Shown here: positions 24,325 through 57,296 of the stretch, piece after piece
Position numbering within the stretch: the first letter of the stretch is position 1
Layout of the letters: every line of letters begins with the position of its first letter
Source of the DNA: Craspedostauros australis
Lineage: Eukaryota
DNA: 58,206 bases
Assembly: GCA_030167865.1 (NCBI GenBank)
Contig: JALAGF010002173.1
Span: 1-58,206 of the forward strand
Direction: 5' to 3'
Program-made: the position numbers and the translations under genes
The notes under the pieces: model-generated
What the model saw: only the letters and a program-made list of their open reading frames with translations
What the model was told of the DNA's origin: nothing
Databases searched by the model: none

Positions 24325-25560
24325 ATGTTCCGACACTCTGCCAGAATGAAAAGAGCACTCCGTCCCACCAGCCGAAGGATAGGGACGCTGGTCAGCATCG
24401 GCAACAGCGGCGGCGTCAACAGTCGCAGGAACGCAAGTGCTGCGCTTTCATCGTTGGGCCGACCATCGATGATTTCGAACTCTGTGGCCATCAATGCTGC
24501 AGGACAGAGCTGGGACGAAGGTTCCCACCGCATCGCAGCGCGATCGCAAGCGGCATTGTTCAGCTCGGCCAGCCCAAAGCTCGATGTGCCTGTCTCGAAC
24601 CTCACGTTCGACAAGAAGTCCTCCTTTGCGCCGCTGGAGCAATCCAATCTTGAAAAGATCGTTTTGGAGGATGTGGACGGTGATGACGAGAATGATGAGA
24701 ATGACGAAGCAGCTGCAAGCGATGATCTGGAGAAGCGTGACAACGACGAAGACGCGGAAGATTACGACGTCCATGAAGATGAAGATGAGGATCTCGATGT
24801 CACGGAGATGTTTTCCAAGCGCCATGTCCCGACCGCTGTCATTCCACTCCCGGAGCGGCTCAAGGTGGACGTGCGCCACGTGCTTGATGGCAGCACGAGC
24901 GGCACCATCCACCTGGATCCAACCGTCTTCGGCATTCAGCACATCCGCGTCGATCTCATCAAGCAGAACGTGGACTACATCCGCAGCAAGATGCGGGGAA
25001 AGCGCAAGGCGAAAACGAAGACGATCGGCGAAGTCAGCGGCAGCGGTCGCAAGGTGCGTCAGCAAAAAGGCACCGGCAAGGCCAGAGCAGGGCATTCGCG
25101 GCCGGCCCATTGGAGGGGCGGAGCCAAGGCGCATGGCCCCAAAAATACCAAGGACTACGGCAACGTCAAAATCAACAAGAAGACCAAGGCGTTGGCAATC
25201 TGCTCGGCCCTGTCCCAAAAGCTCAAGGAAGGCAACCTCATCGTTGTCGATCACATGAAGCTGTCAACCCACAAAACCAAGGAATGGGCAACGATGCTCA
25301 GCGACTACTTCGGCATCGCAGCCAAAGAGTCGTCCGCGCTCATCATCGACCATTACACGGCAGACGACGAGGAAGCGGAATCAGGCGCAGATGCATCCTA
25401 CCTCGGCGTGCCCGTCAATCTCTGGGTGGCATCCGGAAACCTGCACATGGTCAAAGTCGGTGGTACGGGAAAGCTGAATGTCTACGACATCCTCAAGAAG
25501 GACAAGCTCATCATCTCGCTGGCCGCGTTGGAACAGATCGAATCCAGATGGAAGCATTGA
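24325..25560 (+). CDS. MRPL4: Mitochondrial ribosomal protein uL4m (bacterial L4 type), 411 aa, intronless
   Basis: L4 motifs KTKTIGEVSGSGRK, QKGTGKARAGHSRPAHWRGGAKAHGPK, KINKK, LSQK and LNVYDILKKDKLII. The N-terminus (MFRHSARMKRALRPTSRR) is Arg/Ser-rich and acid-free, like a mitochondrial presequence, with no signal peptide. Confidence 0.92.
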   Translation: MFRHSARMKRALRPTSRRIGTLVSIGNSGGVNSRRNASAALSSLGRPSMISNSVAINAAGQSWDEGSHRIAARSQAALFSSASPKLDVPVSNLTFDKKSSFAPLEQSNLEKIVLEDVDGDDENDENDEAAASDDLEKRDNDEDAEDYDVHEDEDEDLDVTEMFSKRHVPTAVIPLPERLKVDVRHVLDGSTSGTIHLDPTVFGIQHIRVDLIKQNVDYIRSKMRGKRKAKTKTIGEVSGSGRKVRQQKGTGKARAGHSRPAHWRGGAKAHGPKNTKDYGNVKINKKTKALAICSALSQKLKEGNLIVVDHMKLSTHKTKEWATMLSDYFGIAAKESSALIIDHYTADDEEAESGADASYLGVPVNLWVASGNLHMVKVGGTGKLNVYDILKKDKLIISLAALEQIESRWKH

Positions 25561-34770: not shown

Positions 34771-34809
34771 GCTTGCCCATTGAGCTTGCCCATTGAGCTT
34801 GCCCATTGA
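34771..34809. repeat. 13-bp tandem repeat x3 (GCTTGCCCATTGA)
   Basis: Three exact consecutive copies at 34771, 34784 and 34797. Confidence 0.9.
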
Positions 34810-35150
34810 ACTGCCTGCCTGTTTGCTGCCGTTGCATGCATTCATTGTCCGCATTTCTTCGCTTGCGTTCCATACCATGCCGATACCATACATGCCATTC
34901 ATGCCATTTTCATGCCATGCGTATCATGGTCGCAGACCAACACAATCCAACACATTCCGACACAATCCAACAACAACAACACCCCCACTCACGATTTTGT
35001 TCATCTGCGCGCTCGCTATGTCACACGATGATTCCTTCGCTCATGACATCTACTCACACAATGGCAATTCAAAACTCTGAGGTGCGCCCAGAAACGCCCG
35101 ACACAACGCAGACCAGCACGGCGACACGAGAAGTTCCCATCATACTCACA

Positions 35151-36968
35151 ATGTTCACAATGCAGAGGATCTTCTCAACTCTTTTAGTGGCGGTTGCCTT
35201 CTGTTGTGTCGTCATCACCAACAACAACGGTTTTGCCGCCGCTGTCGACGATGTCTACGATGCTGGCTCTGCCGTTGCTGGTCACCAGTGCAAACTGCTC
35301 ACCAGCAATGCGGGGCACAGTGGTACGGGCTACTGCGACTTCCAAGGCCAGGACGACTGGATCGAGTGGATGCTGGACATCGAAGAGGACGGTGTCTACG
35401 ATCTCATCGTCCGATACTCGTCAGCGAATGCGCGTCCCTTGGACGTCATTGTCAACGGCGAAGTGAGGGGCGAGCTCGAAATCGAGGCCACCTACTCGTG
35501 GACCAACTGGCTGGAGGAGGCCTTCGTCACCGATCTTGAGGCGGGCAGGAACATCATACGTCTCTTCGCACGCCGCAGCGTCGGACCCAACATCGACTGG
35601 CTCCGGGTGCGCAAGATAGGTGAGAGCACCACCACCACCACCACCACCACAACAACAACAACAACAGCCGCAACGACTACCGCACCGCCACAAACCACCA
35701 CAACTACCACGCCGACCACAACGCAACCAGGCAACGAGCACCCAGGCCTCATAACGTTCGACACGTCCACGGTCCTCAAGTCAGGGACCTTCTTGAAGAA
35801 GGGACAGTTTGTCAAATCGCCAAACGGCCGCTACAGCGCTGGCATGGAACCAAACTCAGGAGACTTCGTCTTCAAAGACCGCAACACCGTGGTTTGGCGA
35901 GCCAACACCAACGGGGGGCATCGACTCTACCTCCAGTCCGACGGAAATCTCGTCCTTCGCGACGTGCACCTCAAGGCGCTCTGGGTCAGCAATACCCACC
36001 GATACGCCGGTGGCATCTTGGTCGTCGACGATGGTGGTCAGACCGCTATCTTGAAGGATGGCGGGTACGCATGGCTCATCGGCAAACCACGCGGCGTCTA
36101 CGCCGGCCCGCCATCGGATGACATGCAGCTCAAGCCCCTCGATGCGCCCGTCCGAGCTGCCTTCTACTACCCGTGGTTCCCAGAAACATGGACGGTCGGC
36201 GGTGAGACCGTCAGATTCGTTCCGGATCTCGGTCTCTACAACAGCGGCAACCCCGCCGTCGTGAAGAATCACATCGATGCTCTCGAGTACGCTCACGTCG
36301 ACCTGGGCATCGCATCGTGGTGGGGACCTGACACCAACAAGGAACGCGCCCGCATCTCCATGCTCATGGACGAGACCATCCGACAGGGCAGCGACATGAA
36401 GTGGACCGTCTACTACGAGGATGAATTTGGCCACAATTACTCGGCGCAACAGATTCGTAGGGATCTGGACTATCTCAAGAAGTGGTTCGCATGGCACCCG
36501 ACCTGGGCTCACATTGATGACAAGCCCGTCATCTTTGTCTACAACGAGGACAACAAGGACTGCGATGTCATCGACCGATGGAACGCGGCCGCTGGTGATG
36601 ACTGGTACGTCGTGCTCAAGATCGTCACTAACTCTGATGAGTGCAACAACGAACCAGATTCGTGGCATCAGTACGGCCCGGCCTTTGCGGAGGTGGAGAG
36701 TGACTGGTCCTTCGGTGTCTCGCCGGGATTCTGGCAGGCCAACATCGCCGATCCAAGGCTCGACCGCGTGGACCCAGCAGTCTTCGAACAGAATGTCATC
36801 AACATGATCTCCAAGACCCACGTCCAGTGGCATCTCATCACCACCTTCAACGAAGCCGGCGAGGGAACGCATGTCGAGTCCTGCCCCGAGTGGAGCAGCG
36901 CATCTGGATACGGCGAGTACCTCGACGCCCTGCATCGGCATCCCGAGTCGTCTCGGAGGCTTGCCTGA
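35151..36968 (+). CDS. Secreted modular glycoside hydrolase: signal peptide, CBM6/35-like module, Thr-rich linker, bulb-type (B) lectin, GH99/GH71-like catalytic domain, 605 aa
   Basis: Hydrophobic signal MFTMQRIFSTLLVAVAFCCVVI. CBM-like segment GHSGTGYCDF..WIEW..GVYDLIVRYS..TYSWTNW..GRNIIRL..GPNIDWL, then poly-Thr. B-lectin segments VVWRANT, LYLQSDGNLVL and ALWVSNT. GH99-like motifs FYYPWF, IASWWG, KPVIFVY, VSPGF and ITTFNEAGEGT. Confidence 0.85.
   Translation: MFTMQRIFSTLLVAVAFCCVVITNNNGFAAAVDDVYDAGSAVAGHQCKLLTSNAGHSGTGYCDFQGQDDWIEWMLDIEEDGVYDLIVRYSSANARPLDVIVNGEVRGELEIEATYSWTNWLEEAFVTDLEAGRNIIRLFARRSVGPNIDWLRVRKIGESTTTTTTTTTTTTTAATTTAPPQTTTTTTPTTTQPGNEHPGLITFDTSTVLKSGTFLKKGQFVKSPNGRYSAGMEPNSGDFVFKDRNTVVWRANTNGGHRLYLQSDGNLVLRDVHLKALWVSNTHRYAGGILVVDDGGQTAILKDGGYAWLIGKPRGVYAGPPSDDMQLKPLDAPVRAAFYYPWFPETWTVGGETVRFVPDLGLYNSGNPAVVKNHIDALEYAHVDLGIASWWGPDTNKERARISMLMDETIRQGSDMKWTVYYEDEFGHNYSAQQIRRDLDYLKKWFAWHPTWAHIDDKPVIFVYNEDNKDCDVIDRWNAAAGDDWYVVLKIVTNSDECNNEPDSWHQYGPAFAEVESDWSFGVSPGFWQANIADPRLDRVDPAVFEQNVINMISKTHVQWHLITTFNEAGEGTHVESCPEWSSASGYGEYLDALHRHPESSRRLA
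35627..35727 (+). repeat. (ACC)n/(ACA)n coding repeat encoding a Thr-rich linker
   Basis: Runs of accaccacc then acaacaaca encode TTTTTTTTTTTTTTAATTTAPPQTTTTTTPTTTQ between the CBM-like and lectin modules. Confidence 0.9.
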
Positions 36969-37969
36969 AGACCAATGCACGAATAACAGCGATGACGACA
37001 AACGCGCATCACCTGCGACCACGCGTCACGAGCAAAGTCATGGCATCGTTCCATGCACGACGACCTGCCTTCTCTTTTGGGCGATCCTTTGAGATTGGCA
37101 CGTATGCATGCGGCGCTTCCACGCGCAACATGCATGAATGCTCTACTCCATCAGAGTACAGCGTACCCCTTTTGGCAGTGTTAACCTACCATCCACAAAA
37201 AATGAGGTGAGGAAAGATGCAAGGGCTGTGATCCACGACGGATCGCCTGCACTTTCCACTTGAGCACCACCGCAATTACCACAATTGAATGAGAGCCGGA
37301 TCTCATGGACGTCCAAGAGTCCACAGAGTCCGTCTCAATGTGATGAAACGTCCGTCCCGATCGGACGAACGAAATGAAAGAATGAATGAGGCAATAGCCA
37401 ATTCGATCAACCCTGCCCGCAGAAGCGCGGCAGACGCATCGCTGATGCGCAAGGTTGATCCTCCACCACACCCAGACATGCACTCGTATGTACCGGTTTA
37501 TCCCACATGTACCATACTCAAACATACGCTCGCACGTACTGTATGTAAATTCTTAACGCATTAGCAATAAACTTTTGAAATCAAGTCAAGTCAAAGAATG
37601 ATGGAAAGCACCGCGCGAAAAAGTGAAGAGATTGACATCAAACACTCTTGTCTCGCGGTTTCTAAACACGCTGGACGGGATCTATCGTATCCATTGGCGC
37701 GAGTCTGAAGAGCCTAGAGAATGGTCTTGCCGTCATCCGTTTGTTGACGTCAGACAGCCATCACGTATCTTTTCTTTGGTGGCGCCTCGCCCACGAGTAT
37801 TCCGACAATCCACCACCATACCCACCAACAGAGTTGTCGTAGAGCATGGAGAGGATTGCAACCTCCGACGACATCTCCACCCTCGGACTGCTGGCACCTA
37901 CCATACGAATACTCACATAAAATCCACTCACACCCAAAGACAACGCACCTCGACGGTTGGATAAGCAGA

Positions 37970-39724
37970 ATGGTACCGCTCACCAAGATGGCACTGTCGG
38001 CGCTCCTGCTGACGTGGGGCAGCCAGCAGATCGATGCATGGTCACCGTCTGCATTCGTTCGACAGCAACAACAACAAAAGCAGCAGCAGCCGCAACTCGC
38101 ATTCGCGACGCATCGGCGACTTCGCACGACGTTGGAAGTGGCCACCAGCACGGAATCCGCAGCAACCAGCAACCAGAATGTTGACCTCATGCTGTACAAC
38201 TCCAAAACTCGAACGAAGGAACGATTGGAGCCCTTGACGCCGAACAAAGTCACCATGTACACCTGCGGACCCACGGTGTACGATTTCGCGCACGTTGGCA
38301 ACTTCCGCGCCTTCCTCACGTACGATCTCGTCAAGCGGGCGCTGCTGTATTTTGGATACAACGTGCGACACGTCTGCAACATCACCGATGTGGACGACAA
38401 GATCATCAATCGTGCCAACGAGCGATCCATTACGGACATCACGGATCTGACGATCAAATTTGAGAATCTTTTCATGGAGGATCTCAAGGCGCTCAACATC
38501 ATCCCGGCGGAGCTCTATCCACGGGCGACGGAGCACATCGAGGAGATGATGAAGATGATCCTCCAGCTGCGAGACAACGGCCTTGCCTACGAGACCGAGG
38601 ATGGATCATGGTACTTCGCCACCGACAAGAAGGAAGGCTACGGTCAGCAGCTCGTGAACATCAACTGGGACGAGATGGAATCGACAGAGCGCGGTGAGAA
38701 TGATCTCAAACGCAACGAGAACGACTTTTGCTTGTGGAAGGCCTACAAACCGGGCATCGATCGAGATGACTCATCGTGGCAATCGGATGAAATCCAGAAG
38801 GGCAGGCCCGGATGGCACTTGGAATGTTCCGCCATGGCGCGCAAGTACCTGGGTGAAACGATTGACATTCACTGCGGTGGCGTCGATCTCAAGTTCCCGC
38901 ATCACGAAAACGAAATCGCCCAAAGCGAAGGCGCCAACGGCCAGCCATTCTGCGAGTGCTGGCTTCACAACGGTTTTGTCAACATCAACGATGAAAAGAT
39001 GTCCAAGTCGCTTGGCAACTTCTTGACGTTGAGGAACGCCTGTCCCAACAATGCGCAGGTCCGGGCCTACCGGTATTTGGTCATCGCATCGCAGTACCGC
39101 AACCCGCTCAGTTTCACGCCCAAGGCCATGGAGGCAGCTGAGAATGCGCTCAAGCGGATCGACAAGGTCGTCGGTCAGATATCGGCAGCGTTGGAGGCAG
39201 ATGTTGGCGAGCCATCAACCGAATCCAGCAGCGGCGATGGCGATGGCGGCGACCAATCCGTCATTGCCACACAAGATGTCCCAAAAGCCATCCAGAATTT
39301 CGAAGCGGCGCTCCTGGACGATCTGAGCATGCCGCGCGCATCTGCGGCGATGTTCGGACTGGTCAAGTTGGCGGAGACCGAATTCAAGCGCGTGGCGAAA
39401 GCAGCGAAGTCCAACGAAGATGCCTCGTTGGACATCGCCGGTCTGGAAGCCATCCAGCAGGCCTTGCAGCAGCTGGATAAAGTATTCGGCATATTTTACG
39501 ACGTGCCGTCAACACACAATGGAGACTCATCAGACGGCGACAACGACGGCAACGAAGATGACGGCGTTGTGCCGGATTCCATCATGGAGATGGTGAAAGC
39601 TCGAGTTTCGGCAAAGGAAAGCAAGGATTGGGCACTGGCGGATTCGTTGCGAACTCAGGTGCTGGAAGAAGGCTATGCCATCAAGGATGTCAAGGGCGGG
39701 GATCCGATCGTATCTAAAGCATAG
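37970..39724 (+). CDS. cysS: Cysteinyl-tRNA synthetase, organellar (bacterial-type), 584 aa, intronless
   Basis: MYTCGPTVYDFAHVGNFR (HIGH-like), NITDVDDKII, PRATEHI, DFCLWK, GRPGWHLECSAM, DIHCGGVDLKFPHHENEIAQ, KMSKSLGNF, and the anticodon domain KDWALADSLR. The presequence has a signal peptide ending IDA|WSP (aromatic at +1), suggesting plastid targeting. Confidence 0.96.
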   Translation: MVPLTKMALSALLLTWGSQQIDAWSPSAFVRQQQQQKQQQPQLAFATHRRLRTTLEVATSTESAATSNQNVDLMLYNSKTRTKERLEPLTPNKVTMYTCGPTVYDFAHVGNFRAFLTYDLVKRALLYFGYNVRHVCNITDVDDKIINRANERSITDITDLTIKFENLFMEDLKALNIIPAELYPRATEHIEEMMKMILQLRDNGLAYETEDGSWYFATDKKEGYGQQLVNINWDEMESTERGENDLKRNENDFCLWKAYKPGIDRDDSSWQSDEIQKGRPGWHLECSAMARKYLGETIDIHCGGVDLKFPHHENEIAQSEGANGQPFCECWLHNGFVNINDEKMSKSLGNFLTLRNACPNNAQVRAYRYLVIASQYRNPLSFTPKAMEAAENALKRIDKVVGQISAALEADVGEPSTESSSGDGDGGDQSVIATQDVPKAIQNFEAALLDDLSMPRASAAMFGLVKLAETEFKRVAKAAKSNEDASLDIAGLEAIQQALQQLDKVFGIFYDVPSTHNGDSSDGDNDGNEDDGVVPDSIMEMVKARVSAKESKDWALADSLRTQVLEEGYAIKDVKGGDPIVSKA

Positions 39725-39979: not shown

Positions 39980-41299
39980 CTATTTAGCGACGATGAAGCA
40001 GGAATTTCGTGGAAGGATAGTCTTCACCGAGTGGTTCACCATGTGATGGAAGCCTGCCTTGTCCATCCATTTCTTCGCCAGCGTTGGTGGGAATCCGCAG
40101 ACACCGAGCGCCGCTCCATCCTTCGTTGACGAGGAGCATGCCAAGCATAGGAAGCACGAGAATCCGTACATGGTGGCGGCTGAAGGGTTCTCCAGATTCG
40201 CAATCTCATCATCGCTGCAGTCGATGTCCACGATGACCCAGCAGCCCCTGTCCGAAAGTCGGTGGTAGACATCCCGAATGAGAGCCTTGGGATTCGTCAT
40301 ATCGTGCACCACATCGTGTGCGTAGACAAAGTCAAAGACATTCTTCTCCTTCTCTACTTCGCCAGAAGGGCAGGGGCCATCACCCACGGTGCGCTCCGCC
40401 ACGTCGCAGATTGTGATGTTACTGATACCCTCCTCCTGGATGCGACGTTGGAAGATTCCGATGGCGCGCTCAGAAGATTCGTAGGCGAAGACATGCGCGT
40501 GGGGAAAACGCTTTGCCAAGGCAATGCTGGATGCTCCACAGCCACAACCAACGTCAGCGATGCGCACGGGTCCTGCAGTAGTGGAGGATAGCATTTGCAA
40601 CAGCGGCACACCTGTGGATGGAATGATGATCGTCGACAGAACATCATCCACCAGACTATGGGTGAACCAGTTTCTGTTCTTTCTGTCCATGGCGACGACG
40701 ATATCATCGGCATGATTCTCAGCCCAGTCGTAGTCCACTCCGACACCCGATTGAATGGCCTTCACCACAGCATCCGATCGATTGAGGAGAGGCAGCAGGA
40801 GCTGGAACATCCCGGCCAAACTCATGCGCTCCTCCGAGGGCTGCCTCAAGAACGGCGCGTAGTCTGGATTGAGAGAGAACTCTAGCTCCTTCGTTCCACC
40901 ATCCTGCTTGTGATAGCTGCAGATGCCCGCGCTTGCGGCTTGCATGAGAAATTCCCGCACCCATCGAGCCGACCAGCCGTTCTGGGTCGCCAGTTCCGTC
41001 GCAGAAGTCCGTTTGGCATTATGCAGCTTCTCGTAAATGCCGAGCTTGTCTCCTGCGCGGATGAGCGCCCCCGAAAATGAATACTGCACTATCTTCCACA
41101 GATGGGCTTCGGCATCGAGCGGTGGCGAAGGTTCAGGCTCAGGCTTGTCCGTGGTGGTCGAACGATCTCGATACCTCGCAACAAGACTGCCGAGTGCCAA
41201 TGTCATCGCAGACCCCGCGAGAAAACCCAGAGTTGCAGGCAGAGCGAATGATGAATTCAGCGTGAGCGGCGAGGCCGATGGCGACGAAGATGATGACAT
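39980..41299 (-). CDS. Class I SAM-dependent methyltransferase, Rv2258c-like (winged helix + MTase), with N-terminal hydrophobic anchor, 439 aa
   Basis: Winged-helix segment GDKLGIYEKL..SATELA..RWVREFL..ASAGI; motif I IADVGCGCG; FDFVYAHDVVHDMTNP; AATMYGFSCFLCL..GAALG..AGF. N-terminal segment FALPATLGFLAGSAMTLALGSLV is hydrophobic. Confidence 0.88.
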   Translation of the reverse strand: MSSSSSPSASPLTLNSSFALPATLGFLAGSAMTLALGSLVARYRDRSTTTDKPEPEPSPPLDAEAHLWKIVQYSFSGALIRAGDKLGIYEKLHNAKRTSATELATQNGWSARWVREFLMQAASAGICSYHKQDGGTKELEFSLNPDYAPFLRQPSEERMSLAGMFQLLLPLLNRSDAVVKAIQSGVGVDYDWAENHADDIVVAMDRKNRNWFTHSLVDDVLSTIIIPSTGVPLLQMLSSTTAGPVRIADVGCGCGASSIALAKRFPHAHVFAYESSERAIGIFQRRIQEEGISNITICDVAERTVGDGPCPSGEVEKEKNVFDFVYAHDVVHDMTNPKALIRDVYHRLSDRGCWVIVDIDCSDDEIANLENPSAATMYGFSCFLCLACSSSTKDGAALGVCGFPPTLAKKWMDKAGFHHMVNHSVKTILPRNSCFIVAK

Positions 41300-41821
41300 C
41301 TTTTGGAAAGCAATGCGGATGTATACGTATTCACCAGCGCGGAACGGGACGCACTGAACCGATACAGCAACGTAACTTTTTGTGGATCTGCGGTTGCCGA
41401 TCAGCCGTGCAACGACCTTTGAGTGGAAGACGTGAAGTGCTCGTATGCCTCGACTCGTAGAGAGAGGGAGAGAGAGCCGAGCCTGGTGTGTAAGTGGGGC
41501 AGTGAATGGGTGGGCGCTGTCGAACACTCGTACGGCTGCTCGTGGCCGCGCTCATTCTGCTGTGACGACTCCAGTAGGGGGAGAAATGGGTGATGTCTGT
41601 TCGAACAGTGGCCAAAAGGTATCCTTTTCTCTGACACAATGTCCACAAAGCGAACCTCGACAAGTTCGAACACATTGTTGGAATTCCAACGAACAAGCTA
41701 GAGATTCTAACCAAAGAGTAGAGAAGAAGAATTGCGCAGACCCATGCGGGAAGCAATTGAGTAAGGCTGGTATGCTCTGCTCTAATACGACTATTACTAG
41801 TATACATGTCTATCACTCTCC

Positions 41822-44800
41822 CTAAGGGTTTGGATTGCTTTGTTTCACGGCTTGGATTCTGGCGCGGAGGGCAGCTGCACGGCTGCTCGCGTTCATCGCT
41901 CCGCCCGTTGCCGTGGGTGCGGGAATAGCTGCCGACCTCATGTCGGAATCGGTGGGGTCTCTCATCACTTCGCTCTCCTCAGGTGGATTGGATGCGCTGT
42001 CGCCACCTGCTGTTGCGAATCCTCCTGTGCGTCTTTCCTGGGCTGCTGCGAGCCGCTCTCGGAATGCTCGAAGCGTCCTATTGGGAGCATCCTCGCCAGA
42101 AGCTGGGGCTTGCTGCGGCACAGGCGGCGATGGCGCCGACGGTACACGAGACAAAGGTGAAGCTTGGTTCATGCCTGAGGAGGGGCTAGGAAACGACTGT
42201 TGCTGTGCTTGGATTTGGAATTGGGGCTGCGACAATGTTGGTTCGGGCTCAGCCGTGGACTGCATCACCGCTTCGGTGGCTGACAGTTTCGACCTCAGAT
42301 TCTTCAGACGTTCCGACATCGATCCTGCCGTGTGCTTGCTCGCGCCATCGCCCGATGACGTCCCTTGCTGGGGTGCGTTGGAAAGCTGGTCCAGTATGAA
42401 CTGGCGGAATGCCGATGACACTCCCTGCAAATGCGCCGTTAGCTCGATCTCTCCATGCACCTCCTTGTACCTGCGCAGCGCGCCAACCGCCTCGTCACGT
42501 TCTGCTCCCGCAGCGGCGCTTCCCACAGCCGAGACGAGGGTGGCGATGTCGACCGATGGGGTTCTTGCGCCACCCGCGCGTGGCGATGGTGCTGGGGGCG
42601 GCGCCATGTTGAGCTCAGCAGCGCAGTTGGACATCAACCGTCCCAAGGACGAAGTCACGGGATCGATGCCCACATCTTCCATCGACGACTTCAGCGTGAC
42701 TGTTCCACCTTTCGCTTGAAGGATGGCAACAAGGAGGGTCTTGATGTTCTGCGTGACAGCTGCGACTCCATCGGCGAATGCTGGATCCATCTCCACCTTA
42801 TCGCATCTCGCGAGCGTGTCCTCGAGGCAACAAAGAACTGTCTCCATGTCCACAGCAAGCGACGAGAACGGGATGCTCGCGCTCTCCTCCGCCTTGATGA
42901 CTCTCGCAAACAACTTACTGACAACTCGCGATAGTCTGCTGTTGAAGACGACGTTCGTATTGTCCTCGGAAGGATGCAACCGAAGCTGGACCTGGAGAGA
43001 GAGCAGCGCCTGGATGGACGAGTCCCGTGTTGATCCTGTCGCCGCCTGAACCGCTAGTTTGTTGATGGCACGCACGAGCTGTGTGCTGGTTGCATCGTCA
43101 AGGCGTTCCACATCGGTCAGCTGCGACGGACTGGCAAGCCGTGGATCCAAAAGTGCCTTTCCTGCTTCCCGAATCAGCATCGCGAGCTGATCTTGGTGCA
43201 CCTGCTTCGACGTGTCTTCAGCCCTGAAGATTGCCATGAGACAGGCCAGGTCGACCGACAGCAGCGGCACAGACATGCCGGCAGAGCAAACATGCTGGTG
43301 GCATTGGAAGCCGAAATCGATGAGGGAGGTAAGCCCCGCGACGGTGTCGTTGGTGTTGACGATAATGGCGTCCCTCAAGTAGGCGATTTCTTGCGAGTCG
43401 ACGTTGGAAACGAGGTTGGGCTGGGAGGATATCGCTGCGTGGATTGCCTTCAAGGACTCGGTACAAGACACGAGATCGTCATCGTCTTCGGCCAGAGGAG
43501 TTTCCTTCTGCACTAGGCGGTTGATCGATGCCATCACATCATCGAAAAGGGTTCGGTTGTAGCCATGGTAGACGGCATAAGACGCATGTTGCCCTTCAGA
43601 CACGAGGTCTGATCCATCCCCAGTCATGGCATCCTGTACGTTATCGGTGATGTTAGGATGCATGCTTGATGCATGCCCTGCTTCCCTCTGAAGTGCGCCA
43701 CCGTCAGAGGCACCCCCGGACGTCGCCAAGGAGCCACCATTCGGGTCATTGTGTGTTGGAGGTTGCGACGGTGTTTCTGTGCTCTGTTTATGCTCGCTTC
43801 GGGGGATAGGGGGTGCGGTCTTGTTGCGCTCGCGGATCTTGAGCAGTCTCGCACGCAATGAGGCTGCAGCACCCGCAGCTTCAGGTGGCATGTTGCCCTT
43901 GCTCGCTGCCAAGGTGGCCTTGGCAGAAACTCGTGCTGTCCCTGATGGCATGAGATTCGATTTCAAGCTATCCAGCGTTGACACGAGAACCCCGGTCCTG
44001 CTTGTGCGGGTTTCGCTATCCCAAGACGCGGGGTTGGATAATTGTGCCGTTGCCCTGTCGGGTGTTGAGTGTCCTATGCCATGATGGTCATTGTGAGACT
44101 GACCGCCCATCGCGGCGTTTGCCTTGCTGTCCACCCCTCCGCGATAGCCTTCGGGTGCACTTTCATGATGGGAATCAAAGGCCGCCGGTACAGGTGCTGC
44201 TGCGCCCGTCAACTCGTAGTCTTGATCATCTCGATGTCTTGCTCTTGGTGAAGCCCTTGGCGACGCTCTCGGGATTCCCGTGCCTCGCTTGCTAAAGCGC
44301 AAGTCAAGAGACGGGAGCTCATCGCCGAAAGATCCCGTCGCACCGTCCTTGAATTGCTGTTTTTCCGGAGATCTTTGCACAGGTCTTGCGATGTTGGTCT
44401 TCGCGATTTTGGATGCCGTTGCAGGCGGCGCCGCCAGACGAGACACACGCCGTGTTGACGACGCTGCGGTGGTGGATGCCATTCCGCTACCACCGGCAAC
44501 CGAGGCACCCCCAAGAGGTCGTGATGGCTTCGACATCTTCGATGCAGGCCTTGAAGTGTCGGCCGCTGCATGCGCCGACGTAGTGGATGCTTTCTTGAGC
44601 TGTTCTTCGATCAAATTCCTTGCCTTGTCGCTTAAATTCGGACCACAAATCCGAGCAAAGCGTTGCATGTCGTCGTTCATTCTGGAGAGCAAGATAATGA
44701 CGAGGTCAAGGAGCGCATGGCGGTTGTCTGGTAGCTTTTCTTCAGAGAGCGATTTCGACACGACCAGCACCCCCTTCTTTCCAATTCCGCTGAGACCAAT

Positions 44801-47800
44801 CTTCTCGACGCATGATGAGCAGTCCTTGCAAGCTTGGAGCCGCGCCTTTGCATGCACCGACGATTCGATCAAACCGACGCACACCAATGGGCCAAGTTTC
44901 TTCGTGGGGAGGAGACTCTCATGCTTGATCTGCGCAAGTAGGTCATTGTACGTATCCTTGAACCGACCCTTCGCGGCGCTGGCCTTGTCGAAGAGGAAAG
45001 GGACCACGGAGATGACATCGAAATCACTGAACTCGTAGCTTTGCTCTCGAAGAAAGTCGAAAAGGCTGGACAGGAATGTCAGAAGTGCCTGCAACCCAAC
45101 AGTACTTTCCTTGGTGCAAAGGACGAAAGTGATCCACTTCAGAATGATGCCAATCTGATTCATGATCATGGGCTCTCCCTCTCCGGTTCTTTCAAGGTCA
45201 ACCGCCTTCGAGAGGAGTTCACACCCAGCCTTGGCATCGTCCTGCTTCCTGAAGCCACCACTGGGGAAGAGGATTGGTGTGGAGGCTGCCGGCAGCAAGG
45301 GAACCCAAGATTTCTTCAGGCCGTTAAAGAGAGACGACCCACTCGATTCTTCGGGATACTCAGGCCATGTCAGCATTCGAAGAGCGGCGCGTGATCGCTG
45401 GACACCGGCAGAGCCTGGACTTCCGTCCAACGGGTGCGCACCAGTAGAATCATCGGTTGGAGTTTCATCTGTTCCGGCTGATCCCTTCGTCCCCAACGAT
45501 GCACGTCTCCGGGTATTCGCATGTGGTCGTTCATTGCCAATTGCGCCGGTGCCTGTGCCCGTGCCCGTTCCGTTGCCTGTGGGGAGGACGCTTGATCTCT
45601 TCGCCGCAGACAACCGGCTCGCGAAGGTTTTCTTCGGTGACCCTTGTGCTGCTGCACTTGGCGAAGGCGAGGGTGACGGTGCTTCATCTTCGTCGCCCAC
45701 GTGGCTGGCAGCTTTCTTGCTCAATTTCGTGATGATCGGTGCAACGCTTCGTTGCTTCGCTGGTTTCATCCTACCCAATGCTTTCTTGAGACCCTCGATA
45801 CTGATGCAGCGATTCTCTACACACGCCGACAAGAGCGCTTCGCCGGCTGCTCTAACATCGGACTTCGATGACATTAAGCTTTCAATCACAACCTGGGAGA
45901 AGCGCTCGCCGAGAGTCAAGCCACCTTGCGATGCAATGGCATCCAGACTGGGGATGCTGCTTGCCATCTCACTTGTCATGCGAAGCACATCAGCAATGCC
46001 ATTCGACTATTGTGTGCGAGCACCCGTCGAGAGTGGATGAACGCGCATGCGTATGCATAAACGCACGAAAATTGGATCGAAGACACCAAAAGGAGTGTTA
46101 GTCACAGGAAAGGAGGGTACGCGCTATCTTGCCCCCAAGATTCCTCGCTTCATTGTTTGTCGTGTCCCTTGACCGTCGAGGACTCCAACTGAACTGCATC
46201 CAACACAGCACTCACCTGGAACTTGGATTCGGCCAGTTCGCCAACGAGAGAGACGACGAATGGTTCCACGGACATTTCGTTGATCCCCCCGCCAACGATG
46301 GCTGGTTTCGACGTGGCATCTTTCAGCGCCTTCATGGATGCATCGTGCATCGTCTTTTTCCCATCGTTCATGGCACCGCTCAGAACTGCACCGTAGACAA
46401 CCCTGCCAAGTTTGCCTTGCATTACTGCATCGATCTTACCAAGGAGAGATCCGATCAGCCGCACAGCAAGTGGCCGCAGGTTGCTTTGTGAATCAGAAAG
46501 CCGTTCTTTCATACCCTTCAAGATGTCTGCGACTCCCTTGGGATGGGCTGTATCGATGAGACCGTTGCAATTCTTCAGCGATTTCTCCACTTCTTCCAGA
46601 GCTGCTTTACGTTGCTTCCATGCAGTCTTGCTGTCCTTCAATGCCATCCTCTTCATGCAGTCTTTGGGGAGCGAGGCCACCAAGTCGAATTTTGGAAGTT
46701 CCAACGTGAGGCCCGGGGAGCCGGTATCACCAGCACCATCGCTTCCGTCGCCAACGCCCCCGCCGTTTCTGCCAACACCGTGTGCCAGAGAGGACTTGGG
46801 CCAAGGCTGACTCGCCAATGACGGATCAAAATCGGCCTTCGAGAATGTCTGCCCGAGCTGGTCCTTCAAGCCTTGATCAGTGGTCGCGCTCATTGCAATT
46901 GCTTCGAAGGCTGGTCCAAGATGAACGAACATGATGGCAAAGGCAGATTGAGCCGCTCGCTTGATCTTCAAGTTGGAAGATTTGCCTTCCTTCACCAACC
47001 ATTCGACAGTATCATTCATGGCGCCTCCGATCGTTCCTGATCCAAAGTCGCCACAGAACGAAGCGAACCATTTGAGGAGCTCTTCGTGGGGAAGAGGTGC
47101 CCTGACACCATCGATTGAGCTGAAGCTGCCTGTGAGAATACTGCTTGGCTGCTGCACGGTGCAAAGCTTCGTCAATAGCTCCTTCGATGTCGCCATGAGC
47201 TTCTTGTCGGCAATCTTCGGCACGGCGATGCGCACAGCGTCTTTGGTCAAGGTCTCAGAGAACACACGTCTGTGCTCGTAATGCTGATCGATGGCCGCAA
47301 TGAACAGTTGCATGATTGCCTTCATAATGTTCACATTCGTATCCTTGAAATCCTTCGTATGATTGCGAGCGAGGGTGAAGATCGCTGCCGTATCCGATGG
47401 AAGCTTATTTGGATCTGACGAGTAGTCCGACGATGTGATGAAGGCCGCAAACGAGTCGATCGCACCCTTCCGAAACGCCCATTTCGATGCTGTTGTGGTT
47501 TGTTCAGGCAGTAAAAGAGAGCACAGTTCGAGTAGAGTGGAGAGATTTAACAGTAATGATGATCCAAGCAGTTTTGGCGTGAAGCGAGGTAAGATGAGCG
47601 ATCGAAGCAGCGACACCAGCACCAGCAGCAACAGTGGCAGAGTCAACAACGACACTTCAAGACGCTTCGGAGAAAACGAAAATCGGGAAGTGGCACGTCA
47701 GGCAAGTACGAACCTTGGAGACCTGCTAACACACCCCCCTCATCGTCTTCTGCGGACCAATTTGGGATGTTCAGATCTTCGCAATGTTGCATGGCCTGAT

Positions 47801-50800
47801 CGCCGTCAGGTAAATCATCCATGGATTCGGCGACTGGTCCGGCGGATGATGCCGTCGATGCTCCAGTTTGCAATGATGTTGCTACTGGTACTGCAGCTGG
47901 ACGTGGCGGCTTGGCTGTGGGTGCCCTGGATTGCGGTCTCGCTGTTGTTGCGCTCGGCTGTGTTCGCTTCGGAGGTGCACCTCGTGTTGTGGCATTCGCA
48001 GGTTTTGGCGGTCCTGGAGCTCTCGATTGCGTGCCCTTGCTTGTATTTGGCTTCGATGCTTGCGCAGAGGATTTGCCGTTCCCTTGGCCTTGGCCTTGAC
48101 CTTGGCTCTGACCCTCTTGCATCTTCGTCTTCATCAGTGATTTGTAAGCTCTCGCATTCTTCGCCTGCAACGTGTCGATGATGCCGTTCACGACATTTCG
48201 CACGCCTTCCGCATTTGCACTTTGGAGGCTTTGCAGGACGCCCATCGCGGCCTTTCGTACGGAGGCGTCGGAGTCTTCCAACTTCATGACGCCAAGCTTT
48301 GCGCATTTGTCAGCCGCTCCCACCGAGAGCACGCCACGGGGACCAGCGTTCTCTGCCCGACTCACGCATCGATTTAGAAAGTCCAACGCCGCCGTTCGCG
48401 CTAGCGCATTCTTCTGCTTTTTCTCGTTCACCGCGTCTGGGAGAGCGTCCTGATCGACTACATGATCGATCGACAACACCTTGCCGAAAAGAGAATCAAG
48501 GCACTGACCTGATGGCTTCGTCAGCTTCTTGTCTTTCGCTAGAGATAGCAATTTGCCAATCAGTGGACGCAGGTTCGGGAACAGCTTGTCACCGACGCCT
48601 TCAGCCAACATGGATAGAACCTGCATTGCCTTGCTGCAGACTGCAAAGTGCGTATGTGAAAGCAGCCCCTTCATGTCGCTGATCAGTGGAGCGTAATTGG
48701 AGTTCGAAGATGGCGGCGTGAGCTTGTACGGTTTGTCGCCCCCGGTTTGAAGCGCGATGTCGAGCGCCCCAACCTTTTCTGACCACTTTGCCAACTGCAG
48801 CTTTGCTGAGTAATCGGTTTTTGGAAGTGTTGCCATAAGATTGACTGCCGGGCGCTTTGCTAGCCGCTCCATCTCCAACTCCTTCGCCCCAGCCTCCAAA
48901 GCAGCAAGAGCATCAGCAGCGGATGCAGGCGCTCCACCGGCTTGGCCGTTCTGCTGCATGTATCGCAACGTTCGTGTTGGTGGTGCTGCGCTTGGCTGGC
49001 TAGCAAGCTGCGAATCCACATGCTTCGCCTGCGATTTCTGCATCTTGCCGATCACGCCTTCCATTGGCGCCTTGGAACCAAAGGCCCGGCAGAATTCGAC
49101 GACGGTGTCAACTGCTACATCACGGACCTTCTTGTTCGTGTTGGAAAGAAGCTTTGGCAGCGATGTTGTGATGGACGCAAGCGGCAGGCATGCTGCTCCA
49201 AATGCTTTGGCAGCATTCAGGACGAGCGTGGCGCTCTGGAGAACCACCTTTGGCTTTCTCGACGTGAGGCCATGGTCTAGCACCGCCTGCGCGACTGCCT
49301 TGATGGAGGCACCATCTTCAGCGAATTCAATCAGTTTCATCGCAATTTCATCGGAACACTTGATCGTGGCTGGTCTTGACGATCCGAACGCTGTTCCCTT
49401 TACCAATGACTGGGTGATCTTCGCTGCCTGTTCCAAGGGAAGGGCATCTGCGGACGTGTTCACGTACACCAGTGTCATATCCAAACATGATTCAAGAGCG
49501 CTGGCATTCTTATCCATGAGGAGTGCGGACAGTTGACCTCCAACTTCAGATATCAATGATCCGACCGATGCTGGATCTTCACCGGTGCCTTTCATTGCCG
49601 CAGCCACATAACCGTACGCGGCTTTTCGAATCTTCCACTTCTTATCCACAAGCATGGACGAGACGGTATCTCGTGTTACGACGATTTCGTCCTCCGACTC
49701 CGCCTGCAGCGGCGGCGTGCTCTGGGTTGATCCACCAATCCCCATCATGCTCTGTCCCAGCGGCTGCGAACTATGTTGCTGTTGCTGCTGCTGCTGCTGT
49801 GGCCGCGGCTGTGCCTGCTGTCCAAGTCCATGTCCAAGCGTTTGTTCATGTTCGTAGTTGTCTGGCGGACTGTTGGAATCGTCAAATCGTGCCATTCCCC
49901 CACGATTGGATATCGCCTGCAATTCTCGAAGAAGCTCTTCATCTTCGGCTGCTCCCCCGCGATCCCCTTTGAAAGTTTGGGGTAAATCTGACTTGATGGT
50001 GTTCGGAGGAGGAGCGGTTGCGGCTGGACGCATCGTCGGGGCTGCCGCCATCACATCATCACTGTTTCCTGTTTGCTGCATTTGCTGTTGCTTTCCTCGT
50101 TTCCATGGTGGAACCCCTCTGGACTGCGTGTTTTGAGATCGTCGCGTCGGCTTTGAAGCAGCCCGAGCAGCAGGTGGGGCTGACAGTGTGGCATCCATTG
50201 CACCACCAATACCATTTGCATCATCGCCGCCCGCAAATCTATCTGTTCCTCCGGATTTTGCTGATATTGCCTGCAGCTCGCGTAGCAGTTCTTCGTCTTC
50301 AGCTACGCCGCCGCGGTCTCCTTTGAAAGTTTGCGGCAAATCTGATTTCATAGTTCGTGGAGGTCCCGAAGGCACGGGTGCTGGTGGGGCCGCAATGACA
50401 ACATCTTCGTTCATTGCATCCACGTTTTCGAATGGCGAATGCTGTGCCTGCGCCTGCGTTTGTGTTTGCTTGCCACGCTTCCACGGTGGGACACCTCCAG
50501 GCCGACCGCGAGGTGTTCGTTGCTTGGGTTTGGGCCTGCTGGTTTCTGTTGGACTTGGACGTGCTGCAAAGTTGCTGTCCGTCACTACGGCATCCATCCC
50601 AGCTTCGTCGTCACCACCAACAAATCGATCACCGCCTCCTGATCGTGACGAAATCGCTTGCAGCTCTCGCAACAGGTCTTCATCTTCTGCAGCCCCGCCA
50701 CGATCTCCCTTGAAAGTCTGGGGGAGATCTGATTTGATGGTTCGTGGAGGTCCAGCTGGAACCTCCGAAACTAGCTCTGGAGCGCTCCTTTCCACATGTG

Positions 50801-52439
50801 CTGGGGTGTTGGGAGTTGCCACGCCAAATCCATCGGCTGCGCCATCATCATCTGCGAATCTATCTCCTCCTCCTCCGGATCGATTTGAAATTGCCTGCAG
50901 TTCTCGTAGCAACTCTTCATCTTCCGCCGCCCCGCCACGATCTCCTCGAAAAGTGTTTGGTAAATTTGATTTGATGGTTTGAGGTGGGCCGTACGCAATT
51001 GGTCCTGGTGCTGGAGCAGGTGCAGGCACAGGCACAGGCGGAGCCGCGATGACAACATCGTCGTTTGGGAACGGCGTGGACATGTCTTTGTGCTGATTTT
51101 GTGCTTGCTTTCCACGCTTCCACGGTGGGACACCACCGGCGCGATTGCGTGGCGTTCGGGATTTCGGTTTTGGAGCAGAAGTCGCGACTGATGTGTTTTG
51201 AGGTGGCACTTCCGTTGCTGTTGCTTGCATTCCCATGCCATCATCATCGCCGTCGCCTCCTGCGAATCGATCTCCACCTCCGGATCGGTTCGATATGGCT
51301 TGTAGTTCCCTGAGAAGTTCTTCATCTTCGGCTGCTCCGCCGCGATCTCCGCGAAACGTGTTTGGCAAATTTGATTTGATGGTTTGTGGAGGTCCTGAAG
51401 GCATTGGTGTTGGCGTAGGTGCGGGCGCAGGCGTGGGTGCTGGTGGAGCTGCAACAACAACATCCTCACTCATAGCATCCACGTTTCCAAAAGGTGATTG
51501 CTGTGCAGGTGGTTGTGCTTGCTTCCCACGCTTCCACGGTGGGACACCACCGGCACGATTGCGTGGCGTTCGAGATTTCGGTTTTGGAGCAGAAGTCGCG
51601 ACTGATGTGTTTTGAGGTGGCACTTCCGTTGCTACTGCTTGCATTCCCATGCCACCATCATCGTCATCGTCGCCTCCTGCGAATCGATCTCCACCTCCGG
51701 ATCGGTTCGATATTGCTTGTAGTTCCCTGAGAAGTTCTTCATCTTCGGCTGTGCCACCGCGATCTCCTCGAAAAGTGTTGGGCAAATTCGATTTGATGGT
51801 TTGTGGAGGTCCTGAAGGCATTGGTGTTGGCGCAGGCGTGGGTGCTGGTGGAGCTGCGATGACCACATCGTCATTTGGGAACGGTGCTGGCATCTCACTT
51901 TTTGGACTCTGCGCTTGCTTGCCACGTTTCCACGGTGGAACTCCTCCTGGTCGGTTACGTGATGTTCTCGGCTTGGGAGCAGGTTGCTGCACAGCAAGTC
52001 GAGCCGGAGCTGAGATATCAGAAGCACCCGTGTTCGTGTCCATCGAATTTCTGCGCTGGTTGGGCAAAGTGTTGAAGTCGTCAACAACATCATCGTTGTC
52101 GTCGCCTCCCGCGAATCGGTCTGCGCCGCCGGATCTTGCAGAGATTGCCTGCAGTTCCCTGAGAAGTTCTTCGTCCTCGGCGGATCCACCACGATCGCCC
52201 TGGAAGGTATTGGGTAGGTTCGATCGAATGGTATTCGGCGGTGCAAAATGTGCGGTCTGAGGAAATGGCGCTGACGCGTTGTTCTGGAAGCCACCATCCG
52301 CAACACCACCGTTGGCGTTCATTGCAGCACCGAAACCATCCTTCTGAGGTTCGTCCTCATCAGCATCAAAACGGTTGGGCGCCGATTGGTTAGAAATGGC
52401 CCGCATTTCCGCAAGCAGCGCAGCCTCTTCCGCGTCCAT
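41822..52439 (-). CDS. CKAP5: XMAP215/ch-TOG/MOR1 family microtubule polymerase with long N-terminal repeat extension, 3 exons, 3394 aa
   Basis: Exons 52439-47714, 47489-46216, 46006-41822 (10185 nt in frame). TOG HEAT-A tryptophan motifs occur as DKKWKIRKAAY, AKWSEKVGAL, SKWAFRKGAI and TAWKQRKAAL. Other TOG loops include SRKPKVV, KDTNVNI, DSQSNL and LEDSDASVR. A TOG5-like region and the C-terminal AALRARIQAVK helix are present. Confidence 0.92.
49890..52439 (-). repeat. Coding tandem repeat array (7 copies of core motif plus one degenerate N-terminal copy)
   Basis: The core (I/M)(K/R)S(N/D)LP(N/Q)TF(R/K/Q)GDRGGxAEDE(E/D)LLRELQAIS..(D/A)RF occurs 7 times and GVPPWKRGKQ 5 times. Two adjacent units are near-identical in DNA with a 414-bp offset (e.g. 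51161 vs 51575). Confidence 0.95.
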
Positions 52440-54089
52440 CGTTAAATCTGAATGCCAAAAACAGAAGCTGATCAATCCAGTGTTTGCGATCGAATCGAAT
52501 CAAATTGAATCGATTGGAGCAGAGGAGAACTGAATGGAGTCTTGATAGAGAGGAGAGGAGAGGGCAGAACTGCGGCCGCACTCGAGATTCACACCAATGC
52601 TTCACGACCACACGGAATGGCGTATTGCAGAATAGAGAGCAGAGAGTGGAGAACCCGCGAAGTGGTGTGCTTGTTTGGTTTGAAGGCGTCGTCGTCGATA
52701 ACGCAATGGCAACAGCACGAAGTCTCCCTGTTAGCTGAGGAGCAACTGTATCTCTTTGATGCCTCTGATTGCGATGGTGATGATGGTGATCCCTCGTCCT
52801 CTTTCAATTGTGGAACGTACGTGTACTGCCACGCGAAGACACAAGACGTATAGCGCCCTTGTTTTTGGCCTTGCCTTTGCCTTTGCCCTTGTGATGCTGT
52901 GTGATACTATGCGAGCTATGAGTACGACTTTGATGGCATTGTGGTGTGATGTGATCTTCGATGGGGAGAAGCCTGCCTTCCCCCCTTGTCGGCCTGCTGG
53001 TGCTTTGTGTACGGTGTTTGAAATCTTGGTTTTGGCAATTTCAAAATCGAACCGTTATCCAGCTATGTGATCGAGCGATTCAAAGTTGGAATGAATGGAT
53101 TCAGTGCGTGTTTGATCGCGCTAGTCGTAGACTACACGACCATTGGACAAACGTGGTACGACCACACCTTCGAAGAGACAGTGGAAGGCAATTGCGACAT
53201 GGTTCAAGCAAGCAGCATACTCTACACACGTCAGTAATATACCTGAACAATCCAGTGATGAACGATTTACTCTGCTTTGCTATCGTGTAGCTGTGCCACC
53301 TGTCTTGCCATTCGCTTGAGACACCGTGTCCGTCTTGCTCCTCTCTTTCGAGAAAGAAAGAGTACTCTTCCTGGGAACTCGCATCTTGCAAATCATTGAT
53401 CTAATCGTTGAATGGATCACTTCGGCTTACGAAGAGAGAGAGAGAGATCGATCGCGCTTTTACGATCAAGAATCCGTTGGAGGAAACAAACGCTCAGCCA
53501 TCAGCACATGGTGTCTTGGTCTCTGTCTTTCTTGCTTGGTGTCTTGTTTTCTCTTGGTTCCTCCTTGTGGTTGCCTCCTTTGCTGCTCTGGCGATTTTTT
53601 GTGACTGAATGAACAGAGGCATGTCGCATGACGACATACCGACGCGGATGTGACATCAACACGACAACGACGGCTTATGTGCACCGATCATAAATCTTGC
53701 CAAGGGAGATCTTTGTGGAACAGACAGCAACGTCATGGCGAATTTGCGTGGTGGTCATTCCATCACTGCGCGCGGTTTGTTGCTTGCTCAGACCTCTCTC
53801 TTTCTTGCTCCCTCATGCGTTCATTCATTCGTTCTGTCGTTCATTCCTTCTGCTTCGGTCACAAGACATCGATGGATCCTGCGGCCTCTCTCGCGCTTCG
53901 ACCATCGCAGGGCATGACATGCCACCGCATCGCATGGCGTCGTGCTGCATCGCATCATGATGTTGTCACGACCACCACAGCACCAAACTCGCATGTGACC
54001 TCATGATCCCACAATTCGTCGAAGACGCACTTGGATGAACAGTAACTCGCGCACCCACATCATCCGCAACGAGAACGGCGATTCCCATC

Positions 54090-57229: not shown

Positions 57230-57296
57230 NNNNNNNNNNNNNNNNNNNNNNNNNNNNNNNNNNNNNNNNNNNNNNNNNNNNNNNNNNNNNNNNNNN
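57230..57296. other. Assembly gap (67 N)
   Basis: Run of n characters. Confidence 1.

Follow-up and report, generated by a model that had tools for sequence, protein, structure and literature searches.

Why should a microtubule polymerase of the XMAP215/ch-TOG family carry some 900 residues of repeated sequence ahead of its first TOG domain, and what would such an extension do? The question is raised by a gene of the diatom Craspedostauros australis on contig JALAGF010002173.1 (assembly GCA_030167865.1), whose positions 1 to 58,206 form the window analyzed here. An earlier note, made from the DNA letters alone, had described the extension as an array of a conserved repeat module that continues in frame into the first TOG domain (TOG1). 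This array is a genuine N-terminal arm of diatom XMAP215, ancient within diatoms and not catalogued before. On balance it is probable that it represents the true, disordered N-terminus of about 900 residues of a raphid-pennate diatom XMAP215, built of modules of about 130 residues and serving as a multivalent tether, the binding functions of which we infer.

An open frame from the array into TOG1

The gene and all of its features described below lie on the minus strand. A stop-to-stop frame of 1618 codons runs without interruption over positions 47643-52499. Its first in-frame ATG is found at 52439 and is preceded by 20 codons that do not contain a methionine; from this ATG the frame of exon 1 yields 1598 residues. 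One open frame leads from ATG 52439 through the array into TOG1 and is not broken by a stop codon. The absence of an intron between array and TOG1, claimed in the earlier note, is probable as judged by this continuity and by the colinearity of orthologues.

TOG1 (49011..49652, residues 930-1143) is recognized by the Pfam family PF21041 with an E-value of 1.7e-27 and a score of 97.1 bits, the cut-off being 27.1. The TOG2 region (48237..48644, residues 1266-1401) matches CLASP_N (PF12348) below the cut-off (E 1.6e-4) and contains many columns that are invariant across orthologues; a weak TOG-like match is present in exon 2. Residue W935 in the sequence DKKWKIRKAAY, which belongs to the KxWKxRK loop of TOG1, is invariant in an alignment of 31 sequences and aligns by eye with HKNWKARV and HKLWKARL of fungal and marsupial homologues. 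We take this residue to be the tubulin-contact tryptophan of the first TOG1 HEAT loop. A phmmer search of the PDB with TOG1 gave no match at E<=0.001; at E<=10 it returned weak TOG matches only, including the Stu2/Alp14 TOG1-TOG2 structure 6MZF (E 0.0046).

The complete product of 3394 residues is colinear with diatom proteins of 2700-3200 residues over stretches of 1500-2700 residues (BLASTP, 36-42% identity). Some of these proteins carry the source name cytoskeleton-associated protein 5, and the distant BLASTP matches are marsupial CKAP5 and fungal TOG proteins. In a tree of TOG1-TOG2, the window protein is placed within raphid-pennate sequences, with a group including Fragilariopsis and Bacillariaceae as its sister (support 99/97). 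The PF21041 match, the invariant W935 and the colinearity with CKAP5-named proteins confirm the membership in the XMAP215/ch-TOG family that had been claimed, and microtubule polymerase activity is predicted by this membership.

Anatomy of the array

The array itself covers 49890-52439, corresponding to residues 1-850, and about 900-920 residues stand ahead of TOG1. The strict pattern [KR]S[ND]LP[NQ]TFxGDRGGxAEDE[ED]LLRELQAIS detects exactly seven cores, at residues 72, 216, 355, 490, 569, 698 and 816, every one of which is followed by (D/A)RF within about 10 residues. The core copies are located at 52101..52244 (copy 1, residues 66-113), 51669..51812 (copy 2, residues 210-257), 51252..51395 (copy 3, residues 349-396), 50844..50990 (copy 4, residues 484-532), 50610..50753 (copy 5, residues 563-610), 50223..50366 (copy 6, residues 692-739) and 49872..50012 (copy 7, residues 810-856), the last being nearest to TOG1. 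Units range from 66 to 144 residues in length.

Exactly five copies of the basic motif GVPPWKRGKQ are interspersed with the cores, and units 4 and 7 are devoid of it. The first (51915..51944, residues 166-175) is preceded by KPRTSRNRPG and belongs to DNA repeat family D3; the others lie at 51519..51548 (residues 298-307), 51105..51134 (residues 436-445), 50466..50495 (residues 649-658) and 50088..50117 (residues 775-784). A third recurring element, PF.N..(D/E)DVV(I/V)AAPP, is located C-terminal to the basic motif. The charge alternates within each unit of the window protein, between an acidic block of -5 to -8 and a basic block of +8. The extreme N-terminus, MDAEEAALLAEMRAIS..NRF, is a half-copy of the core; this N-terminal cap (52368..52439, residues 1-24, MDAEEAALLAEMRAISNQSAPNRF) comprises the helix and the RF half and is free of TFxGDRGG. 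The seven cores, the five basic motifs, the N-terminal half-copy, the coordinates and the roughly 900 residues ahead of TOG1 could all be recovered as first described. Tandem Repeats Finder reported short simple repeats only and missed the array, which was found by a general DNA repeat search. Between the last repeat and TOG1, the linker contains a poly-glutamine run (QQQQQQQQ, 49774-49800, minus strand, residues about 881-889) that reads as a TGC/TGTTGC repeat on the plus strand.

Selection on the cores

Compared with a reference copy, the DNA of the seven copies is only 68-77% identical. The unit alignment confirms that cores are conserved and spacers drift: its invariant columns, 30 in number, are confined to unit positions 1-44. 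Nei-Gojobori analysis of the 37-codon cores gave proportions of synonymous differences (pS) of 0.59-0.98 and proportions of nonsynonymous differences (pN) of 0.01-0.17 in 20 of the 21 pairwise comparisons; the exception is the younger pair formed by copies 2 and 3 (pS 0.25, pN 0.01). At identical residues the same codon is used in 264 of 622 comparisons, 230 being expected from the codon usage of the gene itself. Codon sharing is close to random and pN is low, and synonymous sites have therefore been randomized while the peptide was held, far beyond chance. Selection for DNA divergence between copies, an idea prompted by pS values above 0.75, could be ruled out, as the ratio of 264 to 230 reflects plain saturation.

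The cores arose long ago and are held by strong purifying selection, in line with the conserved cores, drifting spacers and selection proposed in the earlier note. Old copies with randomized silent sites, in which the peptide has been held in frame, provide strong, if indirect, evidence for translation of the array.

Conservation and distribution among relatives

A word-seeded search with residues 1-880 retrieved 96 proteins, 92 of them with PF21041. When all 1,835,955,588 protein representatives were searched without prefilter with a profile built from the seven units, only 121 matches were obtained at E<=1e-3 and 57 at E<=1e-30; in all matches of sufficient length, TOG1 follows the last motif at a distance of about 50 residues. 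The distinct matched proteins number 177: the strict core and TOG1 are present in one chain in 110, another 57 are fragments that end less than 250 residues past the last core, and the remaining 10 are short pieces that do not include a strict core. A tail of at least 250 residues after the last core that lacks TOG1 occurs in none of the 177. The median gap between the last core and TOG1 is 53.5 residues. The motif is exclusive to XMAP215 and was met in no other kind of protein.

The carriers to which a taxon is assigned are diatoms without exception (Skeletonema, Cyclotella, Thalassiosira, Amphora, Fragilariopsis, Fistulifera, Mayamaea and Bacillariaceae), and this list represents both centric and pennate forms. 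The array extension is present in every diatom lineage sampled. Judged from the named carriers, there is a strong impression that the array is restricted to diatoms, which agrees with the lineage-specific feature suggested earlier. In five of five non-diatom homologues (three named fungi, marsupial CKAP5 and one other) TOG1 is matched from residue 12-19 onward, so that the start of characterized family members at TOG1, stated in the earlier note, holds for these proteins. Among the 173 matched proteins that start with methionine, 59 begin with M(D/E/T)..EAALLAELRAIS..RF; this conservation of the cap motif at the very start of 59 relatives supports ATG 52439 as the true start codon.

Motif statistics were derived from 545 core instances in 149 proteins, 518 of which are distinct. 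The core of the relatives reads (G-I-K-S-x-L-P-x)-T-F-x-G-(D/E)-R-G-G-x-A-E-D-x-(E/D)-L-L-A-E-L-R-A-I-S-x-K-S-x-x-x-R-F, with TF..G.RGG.AED.ELLAEL.AIS..RF as the invariant part. Positions left free by the search pattern are occupied by T in 87%, F in 95%, E in 84%, A in 96% and R in 86% of cases. The basic motif follows the profile (L/V)-P-P-W-K-(R/K/Q)-(K/G/R) and is flanked by lysine-rich sequence; a proline precedes 557 of the 599 tryptophans in the arrays, and the positions after the invariant tryptophan are K (90%), R/K (76%) and K/R (56%) in the orthologues. PW[KRQ] is found in 371 of 455 inter-core intervals, and of the 144 intervals that hold both PW and a V-rich motif, 142 have the V-rich motif second. 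The order of the module, from core to PW to V-rich motif to the next core, is kept, the median unit measures 130 residues, and the number of cores varies from 0 to 9 among relatives.

In seven of eight orthologues scanned, which belong to the Skeletonema group, a SAP (DNA/chromatin-associated) domain makes up the N-terminal end of the chain, before the array (P0007, P0014, P0016, P0050, P0055, P0059 and P0063; E 6e-12 to 2.6e-10, which passes the Pfam cut-off). This domain points to a putative link between the extension and chromatin or the nucleus in these species. The Pfam search of the window protein revealed no SAP domain.

Predicted fold and searches for known domains

In an AlphaFold2 prediction of one unit, a single helix is formed by residues 21-38, covering AEDEELLRELQAIS, and the rest is unfolded (mean predicted local distance difference test score, pLDDT, 58.7). 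One helix per unit suggests a disordered chain that presents a short amphipathic acidic helix in each module. The best-supported reading of the array is a disordered multivalent platform for docking and tethering, which fits this prediction and the docking platform envisaged in the earlier note.

Two single units and the N-terminal segment matched no Pfam family at E<=10, a search in which the HMMER filters may drop very weak matches. A profile of the unit alignment gave a single noise match in the PDB, a nanobody at E 1.9, and one unit had no usable match in the ESM Atlas. PF25802, a WWC1-like helical hairpin that is also precomputed for the orthologues P0003 and P0004, reached a summed whole-protein score of 30.9 bits (cut-off 27.8). 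This sum is composed of seven 17-position matches, none of them individually significant and the best covering profile positions 50-66 of 135, and three single segments had no match at E<=10. Homology was therefore rejected: the array resembles the family by its summed short acidic helices and not as a hairpin domain.

Consensus sequences of known short motifs were compared by eye with the array. The conserved positions of the array do not fit UIM, MIU, MIM1, GoLoco, the clathrin box, the nuclear export signal, the B56 motif LxxIxE, the destruction box or the LC8 motif TQT; for UIM, MIM1 and GoLoco it is the spacings of Ala/Ser and Arg that disagree. LPPWK resembles the [FL]xxW[KR] with which the repeats of Sfi1-type centrin sites end, but its two prolines exclude the required helix, and the spacing of PPWKR does not fit a PPxY or PxxP reading. 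The resemblance to ESCRT-III docking helices and the SH3/WW reading of PPWKR, both raised in the earlier note, gain no support from these comparisons or from the Pfam search. A complex prediction of core A1 (residues 1-50) with TOG1-TOG2 (residues 905-1450) scored 0.00 in both runs; as it had no controls and made no use of alignments, it counts neither way. The literature searched, outside of which most subscription-journal papers lie, contained nothing on diatom XMAP215 or the array repeat.

Possible partners of the array

A multivalent tether would raise the avidity or the local concentration of the polymerase. Each module comprises up to three short motifs that are conserved independently of one another: the core (about 32 residues, (IKSxLPx)TFxG(D/E)RGGxAEDx(E/D)LLAELRAISxKSxxxRF), with the predicted short acidic amphipathic helix at its centre, a basic block with LPPWK(R/K)(K/G) at its end and, often, a strand-like (D)VVVAAPP. 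The long and almost invariant acidic-helix motif may dock to a dedicated, very conserved folded partner. The +8 basic tryptophan motifs may bind a polyanionic surface or receptor, be it the microtubule lattice together with the tubulin tails or importin-alpha. In Craspedostauros australis, the SxLP heading each core may additionally recruit EB1. Copy number, which spans 0 to 9 among relatives, would tune the valency.

It is conceivable that the array is instead chiefly a string of SxIP-type plus-end signals, a built-in adaptor that binds EB1 directly in cis. SxIP motifs, [ST]-x-[IL]-P, require a disordered, basic and non-acidic local context, and this is provided by all seven window cores, each of which starts with (K/R)S(N/D)LP, has no D/E within four residues outside the motif and has at least one K/R nearby. 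The acidic surroundings that the earlier note had considered unfavourable are not found, although Asp occupies the x position in copies 5-7. SxLP recurs in centric and other pennate orthologues (8/8 cores in P0010, 7/7 in P0003, 3/7 and 6/9 in Skeletonema proteins), and precedents are described in two papers, namely direct and evolutionarily plastic TOG-EB1 binding by Dis1 (PMC5201023) and the joining of EB and ch-TOG by SLAIN2 (PMC3115796). Across the orthologues, however, [ST]x[IL]P heads only 181 of the 518 distinct core instances and is absent from 36 of the 80 proteins with at least four cores, including those of Cyclotella, Fragilariopsis, Fistulifera and Mayamaea, and the conservation expected of a selected function is not seen. 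Because of this absence EB1 cannot explain the conserved core, whose best-conserved residues (TF, RGG, AED, LLAEL, IS and RF) are acidic and lie outside the SxIP motif, and it leaves the near invariance of the acidic helix, of the RGG turn and of the two flanking Phe residues unaccounted for. An EB1 adaptor in this sense is unlikely, and EB1 docking may rather be a predicted, lineage-variable extra; the proposal of SxLP as an EB1-binding motif applies to the seven window copies and fails as a general explanation. The basic motif lends itself to yet another reading, in which LPPWK(R/K)K would be an importin-alpha-binding signal in a nuclear- or chromatin-directed module, regulated by Ran and importin in a TPX2-like manner, with importins retaining or freeing the polymerase in the vicinity of chromatin. 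The classical nuclear localization consensus is K-(K/R)-x-(K/R), which is putatively matched by all five window motifs as KRGK, and P-x-x-K-R-(K/R) is reported as a minor-site class. The residues after the tryptophan in the orthologues and the SAP domain on the same chain in the Skeletonema group are compatible with such a module. TPX2 is reported to be controlled via a short minor-site signal of the KRK type (PMC3946659), and the tail of Kif18B to unite importin and EB1 sites (PMC10092650). Yet the invariant Pro-Trp is foreign to classical nuclear signals, the acidic helix motif is left unexplained, the window protein has no SAP domain and K/R clusters are equally good binders of the lattice or the E-hook. 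The basic motif would fit an importin-alpha signal or a lattice/E-hook patch equally well, and importin control as the explanation of the whole array appears doubtful.

Alternatively, the array may be directed at its own protein or at the substrate of that protein. The acidic helices would then bind basic surfaces of their own TOG domains, resulting in autoinhibition, or tubulin dimers, acting as an antenna that feeds the TOG domains. The confinement of the motif to chains with TOG1 fits this idea, and the core surpasses the TOG domains (39-54% identical) in conservation, as would be expected of an extremely conserved partner. On the other hand, an acidic motif is an unlikely ligand of acidic tubulin, and the copy number does not vary with that of the TOG domains; we regard such a cis-acting or tubulin-directed role as quite improbable. 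A broader proposal would be a lineage-specific regulatory arm of up to nine modules, whose core captures a conserved partner (tubulin, the TOG face of the same polymerase or a constituent of the diatom microtubule centre) and whose LPPWKRK, with the SAP domain in the Skeletonema group, confers importin/Ran or chromatin control. We consider such an arm unlikely. Finally, the array would lie outside the main product if translation usually started just upstream of TOG1 or if the array were spliced out. In-frame methionines are present at about residues 894-895, just before TOG1, but the frame open over 1618 codons, the codon-level purifying selection in the array frame, the in-frame continuity of array and TOG1 in 110 relatives and the start-codon peptide conserved in 59 relatives make this very unlikely.

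Several observations weigh against the multivalent tether. Every statement about binding is one that we infer from the anatomy of the protein, and a shorter isoform starting from M894/M895 is possible. Most of the orthologous proteins are open reading frame (ORF) or gene calls on contigs. In the motif statistics, G0, G3, G4, A6, D8, L11, L15 and S19 are fixed by the search pattern and reach 100% by construction. P0199 and P0201 are diatom-type XMAP215 homologues, 43-44% identical in TOG1-2, in which the strict core is missing. In P0199 a degenerate trace of it is left, MQAQTFNGSRDGSAE...NRF; the start of P0201 lies about 40 residues ahead of TOG1, and this protein shows no core remnant. The two group together as sister to a nine-copy protein and are nested in array-bearing lineages (support 98 in the Shimodaira-Hasegawa approximate likelihood ratio test, SH-aLRT). 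It follows from this nesting that the array is dispensable in some lineages or that the gene models are truncated; the tree points to a probable secondary loss or to such truncation.

Gene structure and genomic setting

The whole gene (41822..52439, stop included) consists of three exons and encodes 3394 residues. GT..AG splice sites were read from the sequence and delimit exon 1 (52439-47714), exon 2 (47489-46216) and exon 3 (46006-41822, stop included). Intron 1 (47490..47713, phase 1) follows directly after ...GVLAGLQ, intron 2 (46007..46215) was placed by the same splice-site reading, and the joined frame of the three exons stays open. Many orthologous sequences in the databases are exon-1 ORFs that terminate at this common ...GVLAGL(Q/K) point; orthologue P0003 ends with ...GGILSGLEGKFA and P0007 with ...GVLAGIQCKI. 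The 1394 C-terminal residues encoded by exon 3 (41825-46006) align with diatom orthologues at 30-45% identity and match no Pfam family at E<=0.01.

The neighbouring genes are ordinary nuclear genes, none of them obviously tied to the XMAP215 array. They are located at 1219-8062 (+), 16616-22534 (-), 24295-25560 (+), 34797-36968 (+), 37748-39724 (+) and 39980-41551 (-), and comprise the largest subunit of RNA polymerase (split over several ORFs), a sorting-nexin-like protein with PXA and Nexin_C, ribosomal protein L4, a GH99 protein with CBM35 and CBM6, a cysteinyl-tRNA synthetase and a methyltransferase. An assembly gap of 67 N (57230-57296) is present near the right end of the window.

Relation to known systems and significance

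XMAP215/ch-TOG is a conserved microtubule polymerase, the recruitment of which to plus ends, kinetochores and organizing centres differs by lineage and proceeds through TACC, SLAIN2 or Sentin, direct Dis1-EB1 binding or the Stu2 tail. The link to EB1 is made in trans by SLAIN2 or Sentin in animals and by the tail of Dis1 in fission yeast. The diatom protein has the TOG array and the invariant TOG1 tryptophan in common with XMAP215, ch-TOG (CKAP5), Msps, Stu2, Alp14, Dis1 and MOR1. It differs from the family by its roughly 900 extra N-terminal residues, where TOG1 begins at residue 12-19 in the five non-diatom homologues, and its 3394 residues are far above the about 2000-2200 of the retrieved fungal and animal homologues. 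With SLAIN2 and Sentin, the array shares a disordered, multi-copy sequence with S/P/basic-flanked SxLP or SxIP motifs that is tied to a TOG polymerase; in contrast to them it is part of the polymerase chain and thus present in cis, and SxLP is absent in 36 of the 80 multi-copy orthologues. We know of no counterpart of the acidic helix in SLAIN2.

Dis1 and the diatom protein are both TOG polymerases with an L/P/F-based motif of their own that would suit a plus-end-tracking partner, binding by the diatom motif being putative. The Dis1 motif (S-M-L-Q-K-P..F) is single and C-terminal, whereas the diatom motif is N-terminal, occurs in seven copies and is spaced L+0, P+1, F+4 as opposed to L841, P844 and F847. 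[quoted passage not shown] With TPX2 and the Kif18B tail, the array has in common that a microtubule regulator bears short KR(K/G)K clusters within disordered sequence. The diatom signal differs in its fixed LPPWK, its five copies and its pairing with an acidic helix, and importin binding by it is putative.

Diatoms are distinguished by a central spindle that arises from an acentriolar microtubule centre; to our knowledge, most of the molecules of this spindle are still unknown. The array or a single 32-residue peptide could be used as a bait for diatom-specific partners in the spindle or the microtubule-organizing centre, and the natural variation in copy number from 0 to 9 offers a test of valency. 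The array adds a clear case of tandem short motifs that are deeply conserved in a disordered region, with synonymous sites fully randomized between the copies. If the array is indeed a regulatory arm, targeting and control of a TOG polymerase in the unusual diatom spindle would be achieved in a manner not recognized before.

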